Part shown: positions 8,048-63,602 of the stretch, piece by piece
Position numbering within the stretch: position 1 is the stretch's first letter
Layout of the letters: every line of letters begins with the position of its first letter
Assembly: GCA_036279455.1 (NCBI GenBank)
Contig: DASUJD010000058.1
Coordinates: 3,548-67,547, forward strand
DNA: 64,000 nt
DNA from: Rhodanobacteraceae bacterium
GTDB lineage: Bacteria > Pseudomonadota > Gammaproteobacteria > Xanthomonadales > Rhodanobacteraceae
Direction: 5' to 3'
Made by a program: the position numbers and the translations under genes
Notes under the pieces: generated by a model
What the model was told of the DNA's origin: nothing
What the model saw: only the letters and a program-made list of their open reading frames with translations
Databases searched by the model: none

Positions 8048-9595
8048 ATGGCTTCCACTGCTGCCACCGCGACCGGATTTGTCGGAGAATTCCGGCCTCC
8101 CAGTCACGGTCTTACGGTGGTCGGCTTGTCGCTGGCGACGTTCATGCAGGTGCTGGACCTCACCATCGCCAACGTGTCGCTGCCGACCATTGCGGGCAAC
8201 CTCGGCGCCAGTCAGGACCAATCCACCTGGGTGATCACCTCGTTCACGGTCTGCAATGCGATTGCGCTGCCGCTGACCGGGTTCCTCACGCGCCGCTTCG
8301 GCGAGGTCAAGCCGTTCATCGTCGCGACCCTGCTGTTTTCGCTGTTCTCGATGATGTGCGGATTCGCCACCAGCCTCGGCATGCTGGTGGTGTTTCGCGC
8401 GCTGCAGGGCGCGATGGCCGGGCCGATGTACCCGATCACGCAGAGCCTGATGGTGTCGCTGTATCCCGGACACAAGCGCGGTACCGCGCTGGCGATGCTG
8501 GCGATGATCGCGATCTGCGGGCCGATCATCGGGCCCATGCTGGGCGGCTGGATTACCGAGACCTATTCCTGGCACTGGATCTTCTTCATCAACGTACCGG
8601 TCGGCCTGTTCGCGGCCGCGGTGGTTGCGTCGCAGATGCGCGGTCGCCCCGAGCACATCGACAAACCGCGCGTCGACAAGGTCGGGCTGGTTACCTTGAT
8701 CCTCGGCGTCGGCGCGCTGCAGATTCTGCTCGACAAGGGCAACGAGCTCGACTGGTTCCATTCCACCACCATCGTGGTATTGGCGATCGTTGCTGCGATT
8801 TCATTGACGGTATTCCTGATCTGGGAATTCACCGACCATGAACCGATCGTGGACTTTCGCCTGTTCAAGCACCGCAACTTCGCGGCGGGTACGCTGGCGA
8901 TGGTGCTGGCGTACGCGATGTTCTTTTCCACCAGCCTGCTGATCCAGTTGTGGATGCAATCGACGCTCGGCTACACCTCGATCTGGGCCGGTATCGTGTC
9001 GGCGCCGATCGGCGTGTTTCCGTTGTTGCTGAGTTTCATCATCGGCAAATATGCAACGCGCTTCGACCTGCGCTGGTTCGCATCGTTCTCGTTCCTGGTG
9101 ATCGGACTGACCTGCTTCATGCGCGGCGGTTTCAATACCGATGTCGACGTCTACCACGTGGCCATGGTGCAGTTGATCCAGGGCCTCGGTGTCGCCTTCT
9201 TCTTCCTGCCGATCCTCACCATCCTGTTGTCCGACCTGAGTGGACGCGACGTGTCGGCGGGCTCGGGACTCGCAACCTTCCTGCGTTCGCTGGGCGGCAG
9301 CTTCGCCGTCTCCATCGTGACGTACCTGTGGGAACGCGGCAGCGCGATCAATCACGCCAATCTCGCCGAACACGTCAACGATTATTCCTCGCAGGTGCGG
9401 CACAGCATCGCAGCGACCGGCGGCCATGTTCGGCAATACGTCGCCGGCATCAACCACGAAGTTACCCGGCAGGCCGCACAGATTTCCTTCAATCATCTGT
9501 TCGTGGTGCTCGGCTTCATGTTCCTGGGCCTGATCGCCGTGGTGTGGTTTGCCAAGCCGCCGTTCATCAAAAAGAGTGCCCCCGCAGGGCACTGA
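8048..9595 (+). CDS. emrB: DHA2-family MFS drug efflux permease (EmrB/QacA type), copy 1
   Basis: 515 aa, 14-TM-type MFS. Motifs ...LDLTIANVSLPTIAGNLGAS.DQSTWVITSF... and ...GWITETYSWHWIFFINVPVG.... Confidence 0.9.
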   Translation: MASTAATATGFVGEFRPPSHGLTVVGLSLATFMQVLDLTIANVSLPTIAGNLGASQDQSTWVITSFTVCNAIALPLTGFLTRRFGEVKPFIVATLLFSLFSMMCGFATSLGMLVVFRALQGAMAGPMYPITQSLMVSLYPGHKRGTALAMLAMIAICGPIIGPMLGGWITETYSWHWIFFINVPVGLFAAAVVASQMRGRPEHIDKPRVDKVGLVTLILGVGALQILLDKGNELDWFHSTTIVVLAIVAAISLTVFLIWEFTDHEPIVDFRLFKHRNFAAGTLAMVLAYAMFFSTSLLIQLWMQSTLGYTSIWAGIVSAPIGVFPLLLSFIIGKYATRFDLRWFASFSFLVIGLTCFMRGGFNTDVDVYHVAMVQLIQGLGVAFFFLPILTILLSDLSGRDVSAGSGLATFLRSLGGSFAVSIVTYLWERGSAINHANLAEHVNDYSSQVRHSIAATGGHVRQYVAGINHEVTRQAAQISFNHLFVVLGFMFLGLIAVVWFAKPPFIKKSAPAGH

Positions 9596-34975: not shown

Positions 34976-35533
34976 ATGTTGCGGCATCTGCCCAACATGA
35001 TTTCCGTGCTGCGCATTGCGCTGGTGGCGCCGCTGATCGCGACGCTTCTGTTGGGACGTTACGACACCGCGCTGGCGATTGCCTGCGCAGCGGGCGTGTC
35101 GGACGGCGTGGATGGTTATCTGGCACGCCGTTTTCGCTGGCAGAGCCAACTGGGTTCGATCCTCGACCCGGTCGCCGACAAGCTGATGCTGGTGGGCTGC
35201 ATGCTCGCGCTCGGGTGGCTCGACGAGGTATCGCGCTGGCTGGTCGTCCTGGTGGTGGCTCGCGATGCAGTGATCGCGCTGGGCGTGCTGGCGTGGCATC
35301 GTGTGCTGCGCAACTTCCGGTCGCGCCCGAGCTGGTTGTCGAAGGCCACCACGGTCGCGCAGATCGGGTTCGTGCTGCTGGCCATCGCCATGCATGCATT
35401 CGACTGGCATGTGGGGATGGCGATTCCGGTGTGGATTGTTGCGGTCCTGACCGCGGCCAGCGGGTTGGATTACGTGGTGCGCTGGGGGTTGCTGGCGCGA
35501 CGTGAACTCAGTGGGGGCAAACGGTCGACATGA
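34976..35533 (+). CDS. CDP-alcohol phosphatidyltransferase family protein
   Basis: Motif ...SDGVDGYLARRF.WQS.LGSILDPVADKL... (D-G-x2-A-R-x8-G-x3-D-x3-D). Confidence 0.8.
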   Translation: MLRHLPNMISVLRIALVAPLIATLLLGRYDTALAIACAAGVSDGVDGYLARRFRWQSQLGSILDPVADKLMLVGCMLALGWLDEVSRWLVVLVVARDAVIALGVLAWHRVLRNFRSRPSWLSKATTVAQIGFVLLAIAMHAFDWHVGMAIPVWIVAVLTAASGLDYVVRWGLLARRELSGGKRST

Positions 35534-57361: not shown

Positions 57362-58807
57362 GTGATCTCCTTCCATGACCTCTACGTGTTGCTGCCCGAG
57401 TTGTACCTGACGGCCGCGGCGTGCCTGGTATTGCTGTTCGATGTATTCCTCGATGACCGGCACCGCGACCTGACCCATTGGGTGGCGATCATCGTGATGC
57501 TGGTCGCGATCTTCCTCGTGATCCACGGCCAGCCACCGCAAACCGCCCACGCGTTCGGCGGCATGTTCGTGCGCGACCGCATGGCGGAGATACTCAAGGT
57601 CACGGTGTTGATTGCCACCATCCTGATGTTCGTGATGGCGCGGCCCTGGCTCAAGGACCGCAAGCTCTTCATCGGAGAGTTTTACTCGTTGTCGATGTTC
57701 TCGGTGCTGGGCGTGATGTTGCTGGTGTCCGCCGGAAGCCTGATCACCGTTTACCTCGGACTCGAGCTTTTTTCATTGCCCGCGTTTGCGCTGGTTGCGT
57801 TGAACCGCGAATCAAAGCTCTCGTCGGAAGCCGCGATCAAGTTCTTCGTGCTCGGCGCATTGGCGTCCGGGCTGCTGCTGTTCGGCATGTCGCTGATCTA
57901 CGGCGCCACCGGCACGCTCGACCTGCACAGGATTTTCGCCTCAGTCGGTACCACCACGCACCTGCACCTGTTGCAGTTCGGGCTGGTGTTTCTGGTGGTC
58001 GGGATCGGCTTCGAATTCGGCGCGGTGCCGTTCCACATGTGGCTTCCCGATGTGTACGAGGGCGCGCCCACGCCGATCGCGATGTATATCAGCGCGGTGC
58101 CGAAACTGGCCGCGATCGGGCTGGCTTATCGACTGCTGCAAGTGGGCCTGGGGCCGCTCGCGCATGACTGGCGGATGATGCTGGCGATCATGGCCGCACT
58201 GTCGCTTCTTGTCGGCAACGTGGTCGCGATCGCGCAATCCAACTTCAAGCGCATGCTCGCGTATTCCACCATCTCGCACATGGGTTTCGTGTTCCTCGCG
58301 CTTTCCAATCCGAGCCCCGAAGGCTATTCGGCTGCATTGTTCTATGCGGTATGTTTCGCGCTGATGGAAACCGTGGCCTTCGGCGTGATCCTGGCGCTGG
58401 CGCGCAAGGGCTTCGAGTGCGAGATGATCGACGACCTGAAGGGGCTCAACCGGCGTTCACCGTGGTTCGCCGGCATGATGGCGATCGCGATGTTCTCGCT
58501 GGCCGGCATCCCGCCGCTGTGGGGCTTCGCCGCCAAGGTGCTGGTGCTGAAAGCCGCGATCGACGGCGGCATGCTGTGGCTGGCCATTGTCGCGATCGTC
58601 TGCGCGATCATCGGCCTGTTCTACTACCTGCGCGTGGTCTGGGTGATGTATTTCAGCGAGCCGGTCGAGGGTGCGGAGCCGCTTGCGCCCAAGCCGGACC
58701 TTGCATTGCGCTGGTTGCTGTCGATCAACGCGCTGGGCCTGATCGCGATGATCGGGTTTTCGGGTGTGTTGTACGCATGGTGCCAGGCGGCCTTCGGCCA
58801 TTTTTGA
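57362..58807 (+). CDS. nuoN: NADH-quinone oxidoreductase subunit N
   Basis: 481 aa, last gene of the operon. ...FHMWLPDVYEGAPTPI.... Confidence 0.95.
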   Translation: MISFHDLYVLLPELYLTAAACLVLLFDVFLDDRHRDLTHWVAIIVMLVAIFLVIHGQPPQTAHAFGGMFVRDRMAEILKVTVLIATILMFVMARPWLKDRKLFIGEFYSLSMFSVLGVMLLVSAGSLITVYLGLELFSLPAFALVALNRESKLSSEAAIKFFVLGALASGLLLFGMSLIYGATGTLDLHRIFASVGTTTHLHLLQFGLVFLVVGIGFEFGAVPFHMWLPDVYEGAPTPIAMYISAVPKLAAIGLAYRLLQVGLGPLAHDWRMMLAIMAALSLLVGNVVAIAQSNFKRMLAYSTISHMGFVFLALSNPSPEGYSAALFYAVCFALMETVAFGVILALARKGFECEMIDDLKGLNRRSPWFAGMMAIAMFSLAGIPPLWGFAAKVLVLKAAIDGGMLWLAIVAIVCAIIGLFYYLRVVWVMYFSEPVEGAEPLAPKPDLALRWLLSINALGLIAMIGFSGVLYAWCQAAFGHF

Positions 58808-58845: not shown

Positions 58846-61800
58846 CTATCGGCCTTCTTCGGCCCACGTATCGGCCAGTAATTCCGCCTGTTCGATGACC
58901 TTCTCGGTGGCCTCGGGTTGCTTGTCCGGCGGGTATTTGTACTTGGCCAGCAGCACCTTGATCATCGCCATCATGCGCGCGCGCGAATCCTTGCGGTTCT
59001 GCCAGTTGATGGTGGCCGAGCGGCGCAGCTTGTCGGTGAGTTCCTGCGCCAGCGCGCGCAGCACCGGGTGGCCCATTTCGCGCACCGCCGATTCGTTCCT
59101 GCTCAGGGCCAGGTAGAACGCGAACTCTTCGTCACTCATGCCGTCGGGCGGACGCGCGGCATTGATTTCCTGCGCCAGCTTGATCAGTTCCTCGATCACC
59201 TGCGCCGTGGTCAGGCCGCGGTTCCGGTATTTCGCGATGGCTTCTTCGAGCTTCTGCGTGAACTCCTTGCCCTGGATCGCGTTCTTGCGGCCGCGTGACT
59301 TGATCTGGTCGGCCAGCAATCGCTCCAGCAGCTCGGCGGCGAGATTCCGGGTCGGCATCTCGCGAATCTGTTTCAGGAAATGCTCGTCCAGCAGCGAGAT
59401 GTCCGGTTTGCCCAGGCCCAGCGTGGCAAAGATGTCGTTGACGCCTTCGACCAGCACGCCCTTGGCCACCAGTTGGCGCAGCGCCGCTTCTTTCTCGAGC
59501 CGCGAGCGCCCGCTGCCGGCGCGGGTCAGCTTGATCAGCGACACGCGCACGGCCTGGAAGAACGCGATCTCCTCGCGCACCGACATGGCTTTCGGCTGCG
59601 TGCCGGCCAGCGCCTGCGCGGTGGTCAATTTGGCGACCTGATCCAGGTAGCTGCGCACGCCGAGGTTGCGGCCCTTGTCGTCGAGCTCGGGATTGACCTG
59701 CAGGATGTGCTCCATCGCCGGGCCCAGCAGCGCCAGCGCTTTCTTCGGATTGCCGAAACCTGCGTAGTCGAAGCCGTGGAAGAATTCCTTGCGGATCACG
59801 TCCAGCGTGTCCAGCAACACCTGCAATGCCGCGCCGGAAGTATCCACCGGCTCGCGTTCGGCGCCGGCATCCTTCGTGTACTGCTTGATGGCCTTCTTCA
59901 ATTCCTCGCCGATGCCGATGTAGTCGACGATCAGGCCGCCGGGCTTGTCCTTCCAGATGCGGTTGGTGCGCGCGATGGCCTGCATCAGCCCGTGGCCCTG
60001 CATCGGCTTGTCCACGTACAGCGTATGCACCGGTGGCGCGTCGAAACCGGTCAGCCACATGTCACGCACGATCACGACTTGCAGCGGATCGTCGGGGTCC
60101 TTGAAACGCTTCTCCAGCAACTTGCGCTGCGCCTTGTCGGTGCGGTGCGGCTGGAAATGCGCCGGGTCAGCCGAACTGCCGGTCATCACGATCTTGATTC
60201 GGCCTGCGTTGATGTCGTCGCTGTGCCAGTCCGGCCGCAATTTCACGATGGCGTCGTACAGGCGGATCGCCGCCTCGCGCGAAATCGCCACGATCATCGC
60301 CTTGCCCGCCACCGATTCGGTGCGCGCTTCCCAATGCGCCACCAGGTCGGCGGCCAGCGCGTCCAGCCGGCCCTCGGCCATCGCCAGCGCCTCCAGCCGG
60401 GTCAGCCGGCTTACGGTGCGATCCTGCTGGGTTTCGTCCTCGTCGTCGGTGACTTCCAGGAACTCATCCATCAGGGCCTGCTTCTCGGCCTCGTTGAAGC
60501 GCAGCTCGATGATGCGCGACTCGTAGCTGACCGGCACCACCGCGTGGTCGTCCTGCGCGGCGATCATGTCGTACACGTCGACATAGGTGCCGAACACCGC
60601 CTCGGTGTCGCGATCGTCCAGGCTCACCGGCGTGCCGGTCATGCCGAGATAGATTGCGTTCGGCAGCGCATCGCGCATGTACTTGGCCAGGCCGTAGCGG
60701 GTCTTGCCGGATTGCGTATCCAGGTCCGCCTTGAAACCGTACTGCGTGCGATGCGCCTCGTCGGCGATCACGAGGACGTTGGAACGCTCGCACAGCACCG
60801 GCGCCGTGGCCTGGCCCGGGTCCGGCGCGAACTTGTTGATGGTGGTGAAGATGATGCCGCCGGCCTGCACCTGCGAAAGCCTGTCGCGCAAGTCGTCGCG
60901 GCTTTGCGCCTGCTGCGGCGTGCCGCGCAGCGACCACGCGCAATCGGCGAACGTCTCGTACAACTGGCCGTCCAGGTCGTTGCGGTCGGTCACCAGCACC
61001 ACGGTCGGGTTGCGGAACGCCGGATGGTCGCGCAGCGCCATCACGTAGAACAGCGCCAGCAGCGACTTGCCCGAGCCCTGGGTGAACCAGATCACGCCGC
61101 CCTTGCCGTCCTTCTTGTGCAGCAAGGCATCGACGGCGCGCGCCACCGCCTTCTGCACGCCGTGGTACTGGTGCCACTGCGCGATGATCTTGAAACTGGC
61201 GCCGCCATCGGCGCCGCCGAACGCGACGAAGCTGCGGAACAACGTCAGCAGCGTGCGCGGTTCGAACAGGCCCAGCATCAGCACGTCCAGTTCCAGCCGT
61301 CCCTTCGCCACCTTCTCGCCGCCCAGCAGGCGCCAGCGCGAATAGCGCCCGAACTCCGCCGTCAGCGAACCGTAGCGCGCCACCGTGCCGTCGGAAATCA
61401 CGTTCAGCAGGTTGAACCAGAACAGTTGCGGGATATCCGCCTTGTAGGTCTGGATCTGGTTCCACGCCGCCTCGATGTCGGCGTTGAGATCGGCCGGATT
61501 CTTCAGCTCGATTACCACCAGCGGCAGGCCGTTGACGAACAGCACCATGTCCGGCCGGCGCACCTTCAATCCGTGCACGGTGAACTGTTGCACCGCCAGC
61601 AGATCGTTCGCACCGTCGAAGTCGATCACCCGCACGCGCAGCACCGTGCGCCGGCCATCGGGTTCGATGCGCTGCACCGGCACGCCATTGCGCAGCCAGT
61701 CGTAAACCTCCTTGTTGCCGTCCACCAGCGACTGCGCGCCGTAGCCGGCCAGCTTGTCCACCGCCTCGTCGATTTCCGACGCCGCCAGCCCGGGGTTCAG

Positions 61801-61962
61801 CCGTTGCACTGCCTCGCGCAATCGCGGCGCCAGCACCACGTCCGAATATCGGGCGCGGGCGCCTTGCGCTCCGCCCGGCGACACATCATCGCCGTGCACG
61901 CAGGTCCAGCCCAATTCACGCAGCCAGTCCAGGCAGGCGGATTCGAGGTGGTCTTCCTTCAA
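58846..61962 (-). CDS. hsdR: Type I restriction enzyme R subunit (HsdR), apparently intact, TTG start
   Basis: 1038 aa. N-terminal PD-(D/E)xK nuclease (...RPDMVLFVNGLPLVVIELK...), SF2 helicase motifs (QGSGKS, DEAH in VIADEAHRTQ), long C-terminal helical domain. Confidence 0.9.
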   Translation of the reverse strand: MKEDHLESACLDWLRELGWTCVHGDDVSPGGAQGARARYSDVVLAPRLREAVQRLNPGLAASEIDEAVDKLAGYGAQSLVDGNKEVYDWLRNGVPVQRIEPDGRRTVLRVRVIDFDGANDLLAVQQFTVHGLKVRRPDMVLFVNGLPLVVIELKNPADLNADIEAAWNQIQTYKADIPQLFWFNLLNVISDGTVARYGSLTAEFGRYSRWRLLGGEKVAKGRLELDVLMLGLFEPRTLLTLFRSFVAFGGADGGASFKIIAQWHQYHGVQKAVARAVDALLHKKDGKGGVIWFTQGSGKSLLALFYVMALRDHPAFRNPTVVLVTDRNDLDGQLYETFADCAWSLRGTPQQAQSRDDLRDRLSQVQAGGIIFTTINKFAPDPGQATAPVLCERSNVLVIADEAHRTQYGFKADLDTQSGKTRYGLAKYMRDALPNAIYLGMTGTPVSLDDRDTEAVFGTYVDVYDMIAAQDDHAVVPVSYESRIIELRFNEAEKQALMDEFLEVTDDEDETQQDRTVSRLTRLEALAMAEGRLDALAADLVAHWEARTESVAGKAMIVAISREAAIRLYDAIVKLRPDWHSDDINAGRIKIVMTGSSADPAHFQPHRTDKAQRKLLEKRFKDPDDPLQVVIVRDMWLTGFDAPPVHTLYVDKPMQGHGLMQAIARTNRIWKDKPGGLIVDYIGIGEELKKAIKQYTKDAGAEREPVDTSGAALQVLLDTLDVIRKEFFHGFDYAGFGNPKKALALLGPAMEHILQVNPELDDKGRNLGVRSYLDQVAKLTTAQALAGTQPKAMSVREEIAFFQAVRVSLIKLTRAGSGRSRLEKEAALRQLVAKGVLVEGVNDIFATLGLGKPDISLLDEHFLKQIREMPTRNLAAELLERLLADQIKSRGRKNAIQGKEFTQKLEEAIAKYRNRGLTTAQVIEELIKLAQEINAARPPDGMSDEEFAFYLALSRNESAVREMGHPVLRALAQELTDKLRRSATINWQNRKDSRARMMAMIKVLLAKYKYPPDKQPEATEKVIEQAELLADTWAEEGR

Positions 61963-62202
61963 GCTTGCCCCCTGTGGCGCCCCCGACCGGTTGTCCGGCC
62001 ACCGCCCGAGTTTACCGGCATGGCGGAATGCTCACCCAAAGTGACCGTTTCCGACGTTGGATAAACTGCTTGGCGCTGAGGTTCGGCTGCCGCCTAAACC
62101 GTTCTCCCATCGGGAGGAGGGGCAATTCGGCGGCCGCCGCGCTGAAGCCCCCGCTTTTGCTGACTCGCTTGCAGGAAAAGTAACTTGAGGGTTTTTGGCG
62201 TG

Positions 62203-62351
62203 ATGTCGACAAAATGGCGTTTTTGTGGACATGTGCATGGAACATGTCGATTTTGTCCTTACGTCCCCTGTAAATGTCGATTAATGCATTGCAAATCGAC
62301 ATATATTACTGTAATGTCGATACAATCAATGTATTCTTCGAACCTGTCGAT
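62203..62351. promoter_or_regulatory. Phased array of six ATGTCGAT boxes (five direct, one inverted) in an AT-rich hsdR-fic spacer; candidate operator/iteron set
   Basis: Boxes at 62203 (ATGTCGAC), 62244, 62274, 62295 (inverted ATCGACAT), 62314 and 62344 (CTGTCGAT). Direct-copy spacings are 41/30/40/30 bp. Confidence 0.6.
62289..62317 (+). promoter_or_regulatory. Candidate sigma-70 promoter for fic: TTGCAA - 17 nt - TAATGT
   Basis: Hexamers read by eye. Boxes 4 and 5 of the array overlap the spacer and the -10 hexamer. Confidence 0.35.
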
Positions 62352-62370
62352 TCCGCCGCCCTGACGACTC

Positions 62371-63501
62371 ATGAGCTTTGATCCACGCAGACCCTGGAAC
62401 GACCTGCCCGATCTGCCGCCCGCGGCCGATATCGAGAGCAAGCCCTTGCTGAAGGCCTGCATTGAGGCCCGCGCAGCCTTGGCCGAGTTGAAAAGCGCCG
62501 GCGACCTGATCCCCAACCAAGCCGTGCTCATCAACACCATCCCGCTGCTGGAAGCCCAAGCCAGCAGCGAGATCGAGAACATCGTAACTACCAGCGACGA
62601 GCTGTTCCGCTTTGCCCAACTGGAAAGCCAGGCCGTCGATCCGGCCACCAAAGAGGCGCTGCGCTACCGCAGCGCGCTGGCCGACGGTTATGCCTCGCTG
62701 CGCCAGCGACCGCTGGGCACCAACACTGCGGTCACAGTCTGCAGCCGCCTGAAGAATGCCGACATGCAGGTGCGGCGCACGCCCGGCACCGCGCTGGCGC
62801 ATGCCGGCAGTGGCGCCGTGATCTACACCCCACCCGAAGGCGAGGCGCTGCTGCGCGACAAACTGGCCAACTGGGAGCGCTTCGTCCACGACCAGACCGA
62901 CATCGACCCGCTGATCCGCATGGCCGTGGCGCATTACCAGTTCGAGGCGATCCATCCCTTCAGCGATGGCAACGGCCGCACCGGTCGCGTGCTCAACCTG
63001 CTGTTGCTGGTGGAGCAGGGCCTGCTGGACATGCCGGTGCTGTACCTGTCGCGCTACATCCTGCGTCATCGTGCCGACTACTACGGCGGCCTGCTGGCGG
63101 TCACCACCGATGCCGCTTGGGAAGCCTGGGTCGGCTTCATGCTGGCCGCCATTACCGACACGGCTCGCTGGACCACCGCCAAGATCCAGGCCATCCAGCA
63201 GTTGCATGCCAATGCGCTGGTCTTCGTCAAGGCACGCGCGCCCGGCATTTATTCGCGCGAGCTGGTCGACATGCTGTTCGTGCAGCCGTACTGCCGCATC
63301 CAGAATTTGATCGAGGCCGGCATCGCCAAGCGCCAGACCGCATCGGTATATCTCAAGCAACTGGCTGCGCTGGGCATGCTCAGCGAAAACAAGGTCGGCC
63401 GCGAGAAAGTATTCATCCACCCCAACTTCGTCCGCCTGCTCACCAGCGACGACCATCCCGTGCTGGCTTACGGCAGCACCGCCGTCGCCGGCACCAGGTG
63501 A
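62371..63501 (+). CDS. Fic-family protein (class II-like: N-terminal inhibitory motif, Fic core, C-terminal winged-helix-like domain)
   Basis: 376 aa. Fic motif HPFSDGNGRTGR. Upstream S-S-E-I-E-N fits [ST]xxxE[GN]. The C-terminal ...QTASVYLKQLAALGMLSENKVGREKVF... looks like a wHTH. Confidence 0.85.
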   Translation: MSFDPRRPWNDLPDLPPAADIESKPLLKACIEARAALAELKSAGDLIPNQAVLINTIPLLEAQASSEIENIVTTSDELFRFAQLESQAVDPATKEALRYRSALADGYASLRQRPLGTNTAVTVCSRLKNADMQVRRTPGTALAHAGSGAVIYTPPEGEALLRDKLANWERFVHDQTDIDPLIRMAVAHYQFEAIHPFSDGNGRTGRVLNLLLLVEQGLLDMPVLYLSRYILRHRADYYGGLLAVTTDAAWEAWVGFMLAAITDTARWTTAKIQAIQQLHANALVFVKARAPGIYSRELVDMLFVQPYCRIQNLIEAGIAKRQTASVYLKQLAALGMLSENKVGREKVFIHPNFVRLLTSDDHPVLAYGSTAVAGTR

Positions 63502-63579: not shown

Positions 63580-63602
63580 TCCCCCTTCCGAAGGAAGGGG
63601 GA
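63580..63602. terminator. Perfect 10-bp hairpin TCCCCCTTCC-GAA-GGAAGGGGGA downstream of fic (no clear U-tract)
   Basis: Read directly, 79 nt after the fic stop. Confidence 0.4.

Follow-up and report, generated by a model that had tools for sequence, protein, structure and literature searches.

The 64,000-nucleotide stretch of Rhodanobacteraceae DNA analysed here (GenBank assembly GCA_036279455.1, contig DASUJD010000058.1), referred to below as the window, contains an array of short repeated boxes located between two divergently oriented genes, hsdR, coding for a subunit of a type I restriction enzyme, and fic, coding for a Fic protein of the SoFic type. SoFic is a widespread single-gene anti-phage system acting by abortive infection, and the enzyme is toxic even under leaky expression. 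In our opinion, it is most likely that the boxes serve as a multi-site negative autoregulatory operator of this Fic protein, which would be read by the recognition helix of its domain of the winged helix-turn-helix (wHTH) type. We favour this interpretation because the boxes are fixed upstream of orthologous fic genes with no other gene co-conserved, because they covary with residues 322, 323 and 326 of the helix, because a promoter reported to be bound by SoFic shares both boxes and layout with the window and the helix of its protein is identical, and because CccR provides a precedent for autorepression by a Fic protein with a helix-turn-helix (HTH) domain.

The box array upstream of fic

All six boxes proposed in the initial annotation were found at their coordinates when the sequence of 61900-62600 was read, and the direct copies are indeed spaced 41, 30, 40 and 30 bp apart (Table 1). 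Relative to the fic ATG, the boxes start at -167, -126, -96, -75 (the inverted one), -56 and -26. The AT-rich character of the island between hsdR and fic was also borne out, as its GC content is 0.39 at 62200-62349 versus 0.60-0.70 on both flanks. The sequence ATGTCGAT occurs nine times in the 64-kb window, where shuffles predict 2.9 +/- 1.6 occurrences, and four of the nine copies fall inside 80 bp. Among 5000 dinucleotide-preserving shuffles of 62190-62370, with each 6-mer counted together with its reverse complement, none (0/5000) contained any 6-mer in six copies. The native segment holds seven TGTCGA/TCGACA matches, one of which is the reverse-strand reading of the palindromic box 1. No comparable TGTCGA cluster was found elsewhere in the window; a group of three cores at 8658-8735 was rejected as a probable product of chance, being GC-rich, coding-looking and devoid of the A/T flanks of the boxes.

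The suggestion that the boxes occupy one face of the DNA helix had to be abandoned. Cumulative offsets of the direct copies (0, 41, 71, 111 and 141 bp) are equivalent to 0, 3.9, 6.8, 10.6 and 13.4 turns, and thus the copies shift in phase by about half a turn from one end of the array to the other. It is the inverted pairs that do remain in phase, with an arm-to-arm spacing of 11 or 21 bp (about one and about two turns, respectively). Boxes 3 and 4 form the sole intact long inverted repeat of the window, with both arms conserved among relatives and the loop divergent; this pair had been recognised as a palindrome with a correct N13 loop, only its supposed centre, AATGCATT, being misplaced by 1.5 bp. 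Box 5 and its degenerate right arm make up a short inverted repeat of the promoter-spacer type, and the right arm reads TCGATG, TCGACA and TCGACG in the related loci L174, L178 and L001, respectively. Box 1, which contains TGTCGACA, itself a palindrome, and is invariant in 95%-identical relatives, forms a pair of the long type with the degenerate half-site GTGGACAT (cores 22 bp apart), the latter being kept as TGGGCA in L174. Opposite box 6 there is a weak remnant only, ACGACT at 62364-62369 (-7 to -2), and its assignment as a right arm is doubtful because the spacing is 19 and not 21 bp and because the remnant decays further in L174. Box 2 is solitary in the window, having lost its partner arm; at other loci the same position is the left arm of an upstream short inverted repeat (-126/-115 in L076).

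Two candidate promoters can be placed over the array, and boxes 4 and 5 overlap either of them. The one indicated initially, TTGCAA-17-TAATGT, encloses box 4 in its spacer and shares its -10 element with box 5. The TTGCAA/TAATGT pair proved to be conserved in the four closest relatives, and a TTG[C/A/G]AA-17-TA[A/G]TGT pattern is present in the window, L174, L178 and L179; this conservation does not constitute independent evidence, because the elements overlap conserved flanks of the boxes. The position used by the family as a whole is situated one step downstream (62309-62337), and there the 17-bp spacer coincides with the short inverted repeat.

Table 1. Features of the fic locus in window coordinates (positions with a minus sign are relative to the fic ATG)
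Feature	Position	Strand	Remarks
hsdR	58846-61962	-	six type I restriction R-subunit domains; full-length R subunit
Box 1, ATGTCGAC	62203-62210	+	left arm of distal long inverted repeat
Degenerate half-site GTGGACAT (reverse complement ATGTCCAC)	62225-62232	-	found by repeat search
Box 2, ATGTCGAT	62244-62251	+	-126
Boxes 3 and 4, ATGTCGAT (62274-62281), N13, ATCGACAT (62295-62302)	62274-62302		family positions -96/-75
Alternative candidate promoter, TTGCAA-17-TAATGT	62289-62317	+	TTGCAA 62289-62294, TAATGT 62312-62317
Family-type sigma-70 position	62309-62337	+	-35 CTGTAA (62309-62314), -10 TATTCT (62332-62337)
Box 5, ATGTCGAT (62314-62321), and degenerate right arm TCAATG (62326-62331)	62314-62331		family positions -56/-45
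Box 6, CTGTCGAT	62344-62351	+	-26; left arm of proximal long inverted repeat
fic	62371-63501	+	class II Fic AMP-transferase of the SoFic type; would bind the boxes
Recognition-helix codons, residues 321-333, RQTASVYLKQLAA	63331-63369	+	from AlphaFold2 model; residues 322, 323 and 326 covary with boxes

Conservation of the boxes in orthologous fic loci

The comparison comprised 80 loci (relatives at 57-75% identity) from Proteobacteria, Cyanobacteria, Planctomycetota, Gemmatimonadota, Acidobacteriota, Verrucomicrobiota, Deinococcota and other phyla. Over the 206 nt that precede fic, TGTCG/CGACA cores reached a density of 22.5 per kb, versus 2.7 per kb in the remainder of these loci. At least three cores preceded fic in 67 of the 80 loci, as compared to 2.1% of control windows. 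The positions of the cores peak at -126, -96, -75, -56, -45, -26 and -5, with boxes fixed to the nucleotide on the plus strand at -126, -96, -56 and -26 and on the minus strand at -115, -75, -45 and -5.

The consensus of 46 loci anchored on the short inverted repeat reads ..TGTCGAtAAAA...aaaaaT.TCGACAT-N7-TTGACG / TGTCGAT-N3-ATCGACA / TAtnCT ...TGTCGAAAAAA......aaCATG, where the slashes delimit the promoter spacer. The order of elements in the family is thus a long inverted repeat, the -35 element, a short inverted repeat, the -10 element, and a second long inverted repeat which reaches the ATG. In the long repeats the arms are 21 bp apart and the centre is A/T-rich; in the short one the arms are 11 bp apart, and the repeat fills exactly the 17-bp spacer between TTGACG and TAnnCT. 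The proximal long repeat spans the 5' untranslated region (UTR) and the ribosome-binding site (RBS) and ends at the ATG. A logo of 208 sites gave A-Y-R-TGTCGA-T as the half-site.

The closest relatives of the window Fic (95%, 84%, 83% and 75% protein identity) keep the boxes upstream of fic, with diverged spacers. Their fic genes are accompanied by PadR, PEPCK, TetR, methyltransferase and other unrelated genes, and not by hsdR. When all open reading frames (ORFs) within 2.5 kb of fic were clustered, no family was found in more than 6 of the 80 loci, the commonest neighbours being subunits of type I restriction-modification systems (about 4-6 of 80). Hence, no regulator gene besides fic itself is co-inherited with the boxes, and the moving unit appears to be fic together with its upstream DNA.

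Several other features of the upstream regions were noticed. In L028 and L065, a promoter-plus-operator unit of about 70 bp is repeated in tandem two to three times, with up to 11 half-sites. A GC-rich segment upstream of the array (about 62090-62190) is conserved in the 95%-identical loci L174-L177, contains an inverted repeat (62084-62097 / 62126-62139) and is apparently carried along with fic. Another repeated element, TCTATACA(C/T)GT, also found as TGTATAGATA, precedes the box arrays of several loci from gammaproteobacteria and betaproteobacteria (L052, L053, L062, L066 and L073, at about -180 to -150) and is present in fragment F3 of the Shewanella oneidensis promoter described below; it does not occur in the window.

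Covariation of the boxes with the recognition helix

The product of fic consists of Fic_N, Fic and SoFic-like_C (wHTH) domains (Pfam, 3e-25, 8e-15 and 7e-32), and it matches the PADLOC model of the SoFic defence system (2e-116) as well as solved SoFic structures in PDB (1e-143). In its translation, SSEIEN, the inhibitory motif of class II, occupies residues 65-70, and the catalytic Fic motif HPFSDGNGRTGR occupies residues 195-206. An AlphaFold2 model (predicted local distance difference test score of 83) has a canonical winged helix at the C-terminus, composed of helices 296-301 and 310-315 with a strand at 307-309, the recognition helix 321-333, and a wing formed by strands 338-342 and 345-349.

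While copies of the box within one locus agree, the box differs between loci, and the classes TGTCGA, TGTCG[C/T], TGTCAC, TGTTCA, and ATGGTC[G/A] and ATGG[T/A][G/A]C could be distinguished. In an analysis of mutual information over about 440 alignment columns, the choice between TGTCGA and TGTCG[C/T] was associated most strongly with residues 326 and 323, residue 320 ranking fourth; in the model, all three are placed in the first two turns of helix 321-333 or at its N-cap. TGTCG[C/T] is dominant in 68 of the 70 loci with A323 and R326, and TGTCGA in 40 of the 43 loci lacking R326. The Fic of the window (K320, Q322, T323, V326) combines Q322 and V326 with TGTCGA and hence represents the majority class (40/43) of Q322 loci without R326.

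Residue 322 tracks the core of the box, Q being paired with TGTCG (119 loci), R with TGTCA, V with TGTTC (2/2 loci) and H with ATGG (2/2 loci). The helices of L048 (R322, box TGTCAC) and L057 (Q322, box TGTCGC) differ at residue 322 alone. The prediction for R322 was tested by a homologue search with the full-length L048 protein, in which 12 of 120 homologues had R322, scattered among Q322 proteins. TGTCAC/GTGACA half-sites were present at the four R322 loci that were newly fetched and absent from two Q322 controls. In the pooled set of 133 loci, at least three TGTCA cores occurred at 7/7 R322 loci, four of them coming from this prediction test, versus 0/119 Q322 loci (Fisher 1e-11, not corrected for phylogeny). 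A metagenome scan with a 57-amino-acid wHTH peptide, meant to enrich R322, returned only Q322/A323/R326 proteins and served as a replication for that class: all of about 47 usable loci encode xRQAASRYLK, and TGTCGC is the top box in most of them.

Some loci depart from these classes in ways that deserve mention. Two Xanthomonas loci, L003 and L004 (helix TRQTAARHLK), carry other inverted repeats, ACGCGTTaaaaaaaatggatttttaGAACGCGT and CATGTTCG...CAACATG, and may represent a further specificity class. At L181, L182 and L184, R322 loci with proximal boxes of the TGTCAC type, there is a distal array of the TGTCGA type at about -230 to -130, which could either have been left over from a change of specificity or serve a second SoFic paralogue in cross-regulation. 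More distant Fic-wHTH relatives (31-51% identity) encoded by predicted viral contigs from IMG/VR (L084-L092) possess the same upstream layout, with the boxes GAATGTTCA, TGTCAA/TTGACA, ATGTAAAG, TGGAATA and GGTAAAT. As the layout is kept in these relatives with unrelated boxes, the self-operator design would extend beyond SoFic proper.

Comparison with the promoter of S. oneidensis SoFic

It was recently reported that the dimeric SoFic of S. oneidensis and the 300 bp preceding its gene elute together and that the binding is best with the proximal 100 bp (fragment F1), where boxes are present; no promoter-DNA binding was seen with the monomeric L31D mutant, and none with a composition-matched random fragment (bioRxiv 10.64898/2026.07.09.737422). 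The same protein AMPylates EF-Tu, and both its AMPylation and DNA-binding activities need the dimer (10.64898/2026.07.09.737422). This SoFic (SO_4266, mloA) is orthologous to the Fic of the window (E = 1e-143), and the recognition helix, AKRQTASVYLKQL, is identical in the two proteins.

The bound promoter, as given in Table S2 of the preprint, contains TTTACA-ATGTCGAT-TGA-ATCGACAT-AAGCT, followed by a proximal long repeat, ATGTCGATAAAA...TTTAAAC[ATG], and preceded by two more units; its positions are approximate, since 298 of 300 nt were recovered. Thus, it shares with the window the ATGTCGAT/ATCGACAT boxes and the order of long inverted repeat, -35, short inverted repeat, -10, long inverted repeat and ATG. 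The two promoters differ in quality: that of S. oneidensis has a good -35 element (TTTACA) and a perfect short repeat, whereas in the window the -35 element is poor and several partner arms are degenerate. Moreover, there is an additional distal unit in the window, where the distance from the -10 element to the last long repeat is about 11 bp shorter. With one intact repeat, degenerate partners and the solitary box 2, the operator of the window is probably weaker than its S. oneidensis counterpart.

Discussion

The mechanism that we propose on the basis of sequence comparison assumes that half-sites A-Y-R-TGTCGA-T would be bound by a Fic dimer through the recognition helix of the C-terminal winged helix. 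The half-sites are arranged as alternating long (21 bp) and short (11 bp) inverted repeats, of which one short pair would fill the spacer of the promoter of fic. A long pair would precede this promoter immediately, and another would extend over the RBS, the ATG and the point where transcription starts. Fic dimers occupying these sites, probably in a cooperative manner, would then block RNA polymerase, and the outcome would be a tight negative feedback on a toxic, EF-Tu-AMPylating defence gene. We infer that the Fic protein of the window binds the DNA of the window and that the effect is repression and not activation; the choice of promoter, the stoichiometry and the cooperativity are of the same inferred status. 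The candidacy of the Fic wHTH as the binder, advanced in the initial annotation, is strongly supported by conservation, by helix covariation and by the boxes of the SoFic promoter.

Several observations weigh against this autoregulatory interpretation. Three of the expected partner arms, those of boxes 1, 5 and 6, are degenerate in the window, which makes the real occupancy uncertain. The family-type -35 element, CTGTAA, is a poor match, and a scan of 61800-62500 with sigma-70 and terminator consensuses detected no promoter at the threshold of 9/12 matches, so that the promoter assignment is taken from the family consensus only. Start codons of the other loci were assigned heuristically. The statistics of covariation include no correction for common descent, only two loci make up each of the classes V322 and H322, and the R322 loci mix TGTCA and TGTCG half-sites. 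L068, L072 and L077 have a Q/T helix yet degenerate boxes (TGTTTA, TGTCTA or TGTTGA), and the Xanthomonas loci L003 and L004 are without clear boxes. Finally, the SoFic report is an un-reviewed preprint, in which binding was followed by co-elution in size exclusion at 25 uM protein, no motif or footprint is defined, and transcription was not measured (10.64898/2026.07.09.737422).

A precedent for the proposed regulation is CccR of Yersinia pseudotuberculosis, only distantly related but like the window Fic a class II Fic toxin with a C-terminal HTH, which represses its own promoter through AGATAATCAT-N26-ATGATAATCT, as demonstrated by electrophoretic mobility shift assay, footprinting, isothermal titration calorimetry and lacZ fusions (PMC9755527). 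CccR acts as a dimer on inverted repeats near -35 and -10, and its regulatory and toxic activities are separable; it is a type VI secretion system effector targeting FtsZ, with 29% identity to SoFic over 45% coverage (PMC9755527). In kind, the operator of the window is akin to that of CccR, but the box, the spacing and the number of sites are different: CccR uses two half-sites about 36 bp apart, whereas the array has 6-9 half-sites with arm spacings of 11 and 21 bp. No match to the CccR operator was found in the fic intergenic region, and the single match with one mismatch in the whole window, at 35112, equals chance expectation. Another protein of the Fic_N-Fic-wHTH architecture, CbFic2 of Coxiella burnetii, binds DNA through its HTH in a largely non-specific manner; this binding induces dimerization, which proceeds through the N-terminal helix, and stimulates (de)AMPylation (PMC10628234). 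Here, unlike in the role proposed for the window Fic, DNA stimulates the enzyme instead of serving promoter regulation, and no operator is known.

Some likeness to the Phd/Doc type II toxin-antitoxin system may also be noted, as there, too, a toxic enzyme of the Fido fold is under negative feedback exerted through palindromic operators over the promoter. However, in Phd/Doc it is a separate antitoxin that bears the DNA-binding domain, while in the window the toxin bears it and no antitoxin gene is co-conserved. The Sofic protein of Escherichia coli, toxic as a dimer, has a small downstream antitoxin, AS1, of 47 amino acids (PMC12249575). A counterpart of AS1 is not visible in the window, there being no small ORF between fic and a hairpin at 63581-63601. 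Classification of the locus as a type II toxin-antitoxin operon was rejected both on this ground and for want of a conserved adjacent ORF family.

An explanation that we consider unlikely, although it deserves attention, is that the array goes beyond a repressor operator and is a DNA scaffold on which SoFic dimers or oligomers assemble and which gates AMPylation, so that the toxin is stored or activated on DNA, repression being a by-product or a second function. The dependence of both SoFic activities on the dimer and the stimulation of CbFic2 by DNA (PMC10628234) would agree with it, as would the number of half-sites, which exceeds the need of promoter occlusion and reaches 11 where the 70-bp units stand in tandem in L028 and L065. 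Nevertheless, the short repeat always lies inside the promoter spacer and a long one over the start region, as a repressor would require, and a single array per genome would have to serve many protein molecules. Control of the divergent hsdR by the array, either additionally or mainly, seems improbable to us. The intergenic region is shared, boxes 1 and 2 extend towards hsdR, and both genes belong to defence; yet about 240 bp separate box 1 from the start of hsdR, relatives without hsdR have the same distal boxes, type I restriction-modification genes adjoin fic in only about 4-6 of 80 loci, and the consensus scan of 61800-62500 gave no promoter-like site for hsdR. The possibility of hsdR control raised in the initial annotation finds no support in the comparison, hsdR being absent beside the closest relatives, which keep the array.

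Binding of the boxes by another trans-acting factor, such as a host regulator or a nucleoid protein, with Fic merely regulated, we regard as very improbable. AT-rich islands do often attract nucleoid proteins, but these boxes travel with fic over at least 10 phyla, through unrelated neighbourhoods and with no co-conserved gene, they change together with recognition-helix residues of Fic, and SoFic binds the equivalent DNA in vitro. Less probable still is the view that the boxes function at the level of RNA, as a hairpin or attenuator in the 5' UTR by which the RBS and the ATG are masked, or form cruciforms in the DNA. One might invoke the proximal long repeat, which in many loci brackets the RBS and ends at the ATG, and the fact that the two arms of each repeat always match. 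However, a single sequence is common to all boxes of a locus, which would not be expected of independent stems, the majority of boxes lie upstream of the promoter, and 3' arms are degenerate in the window. Furthermore, the putative 5' UTR (62324-62400) folds worse than its shuffles (z = +1.3; z = -1.6 for the whole 201 nt), and an Rfam search returned 0 matches at E <= 1. It is scarcely credible that the boxes represent replicon iterons or repeats bound by a protein at a mobile-element end, even if short, regularly spaced repeats in an AT-rich island may bring such structures to mind: the half-sites measure 8-10 bp, alternate in orientation and keep an exact distance from the ATG of fic, no rep, transposase or integrase gene is co-conserved, and the contexts are chromosomal. 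Plasmid iterons at a replication origin would be direct repeats of about 17-22 bp in the same orientation by a rep gene; the boxes do not have this form, and the window holds no rep gene. Transposon ends and hsdS recognition sites were likewise rejected, in the absence of associated genes and with the position fixed to the fic ATG. Of the initial description of the boxes as an operator or iteron set, only the operator is thus retained, the boxes being half-sites of inverted repeats that overlap the promoter.

Autorepression by a toxin of the Fic-wHTH type is known in kind from CccR, and the autoregulatory operator proposed for SoFic introduces no new principle. On the other hand, it seems that neither the motif nor the promoter-embedded 11/21-bp architecture has been described before, and the same goes for its conservation across phyla and for the correspondence between residues and bases. 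A literature text search with ATGTCGAT and ATCGACAT retrieved only primers and unrelated sequences, and no paper describing the box was found. The original statement that no regulator with this box has been described holds in this narrow sense; it must be amended in that CccR autorepression and SoFic promoter binding have both been reported. The analysis would supply the missing cis element for SoFic control, the half-site A-Y-R-TGTCGA-T, in a stereotyped, promoter-embedded layout conserved from Proteobacteria to Cyanobacteria, Planctomycetota and Gemmatimonadota, together with a simple residue-to-base code (Q, R, V or H at 322; R at 326). The hypothesis of wHTH autoregulation has thereby become directly testable, also in the S. 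oneidensis system, and the natural orthogonal repressor-operator pairs are of potential use in engineering.

One may speculate further, with a low degree of confidence, that the array is a programmable and fast-diversifying recognition module, in which single residues at position 322 or 326 re-target the box and which keeps co-resident or incoming SoFic paralogues orthogonal while also tethering dimers on DNA and so gating AMPylation. If this were true, phage infection perturbing the chromosome would release EF-Tu AMPylation, and the array would be part of an infection sensor in addition to a feedback operator.

Flanking genes

Neither hsdM nor hsdS adjoins the hsdR gene, whose neighbours are fic and, on the opposite side, nuoN, ending at 58807. 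Together, hsdR and fic look like a two-gene defence islet between the nuo operon and a gene for a secreted protein. The latter starts at about 63729, its product has a signal-peptide-like N-terminus and by eye resembles a pyrroloquinoline quinone-dependent sugar dehydrogenase. The hairpin at 63581-63601 is GC-rich (CCCCCTTCC-GAA-GGAAGGGGG) and, lying 80 nt beyond the stop codon of fic, probably acts as a terminator.

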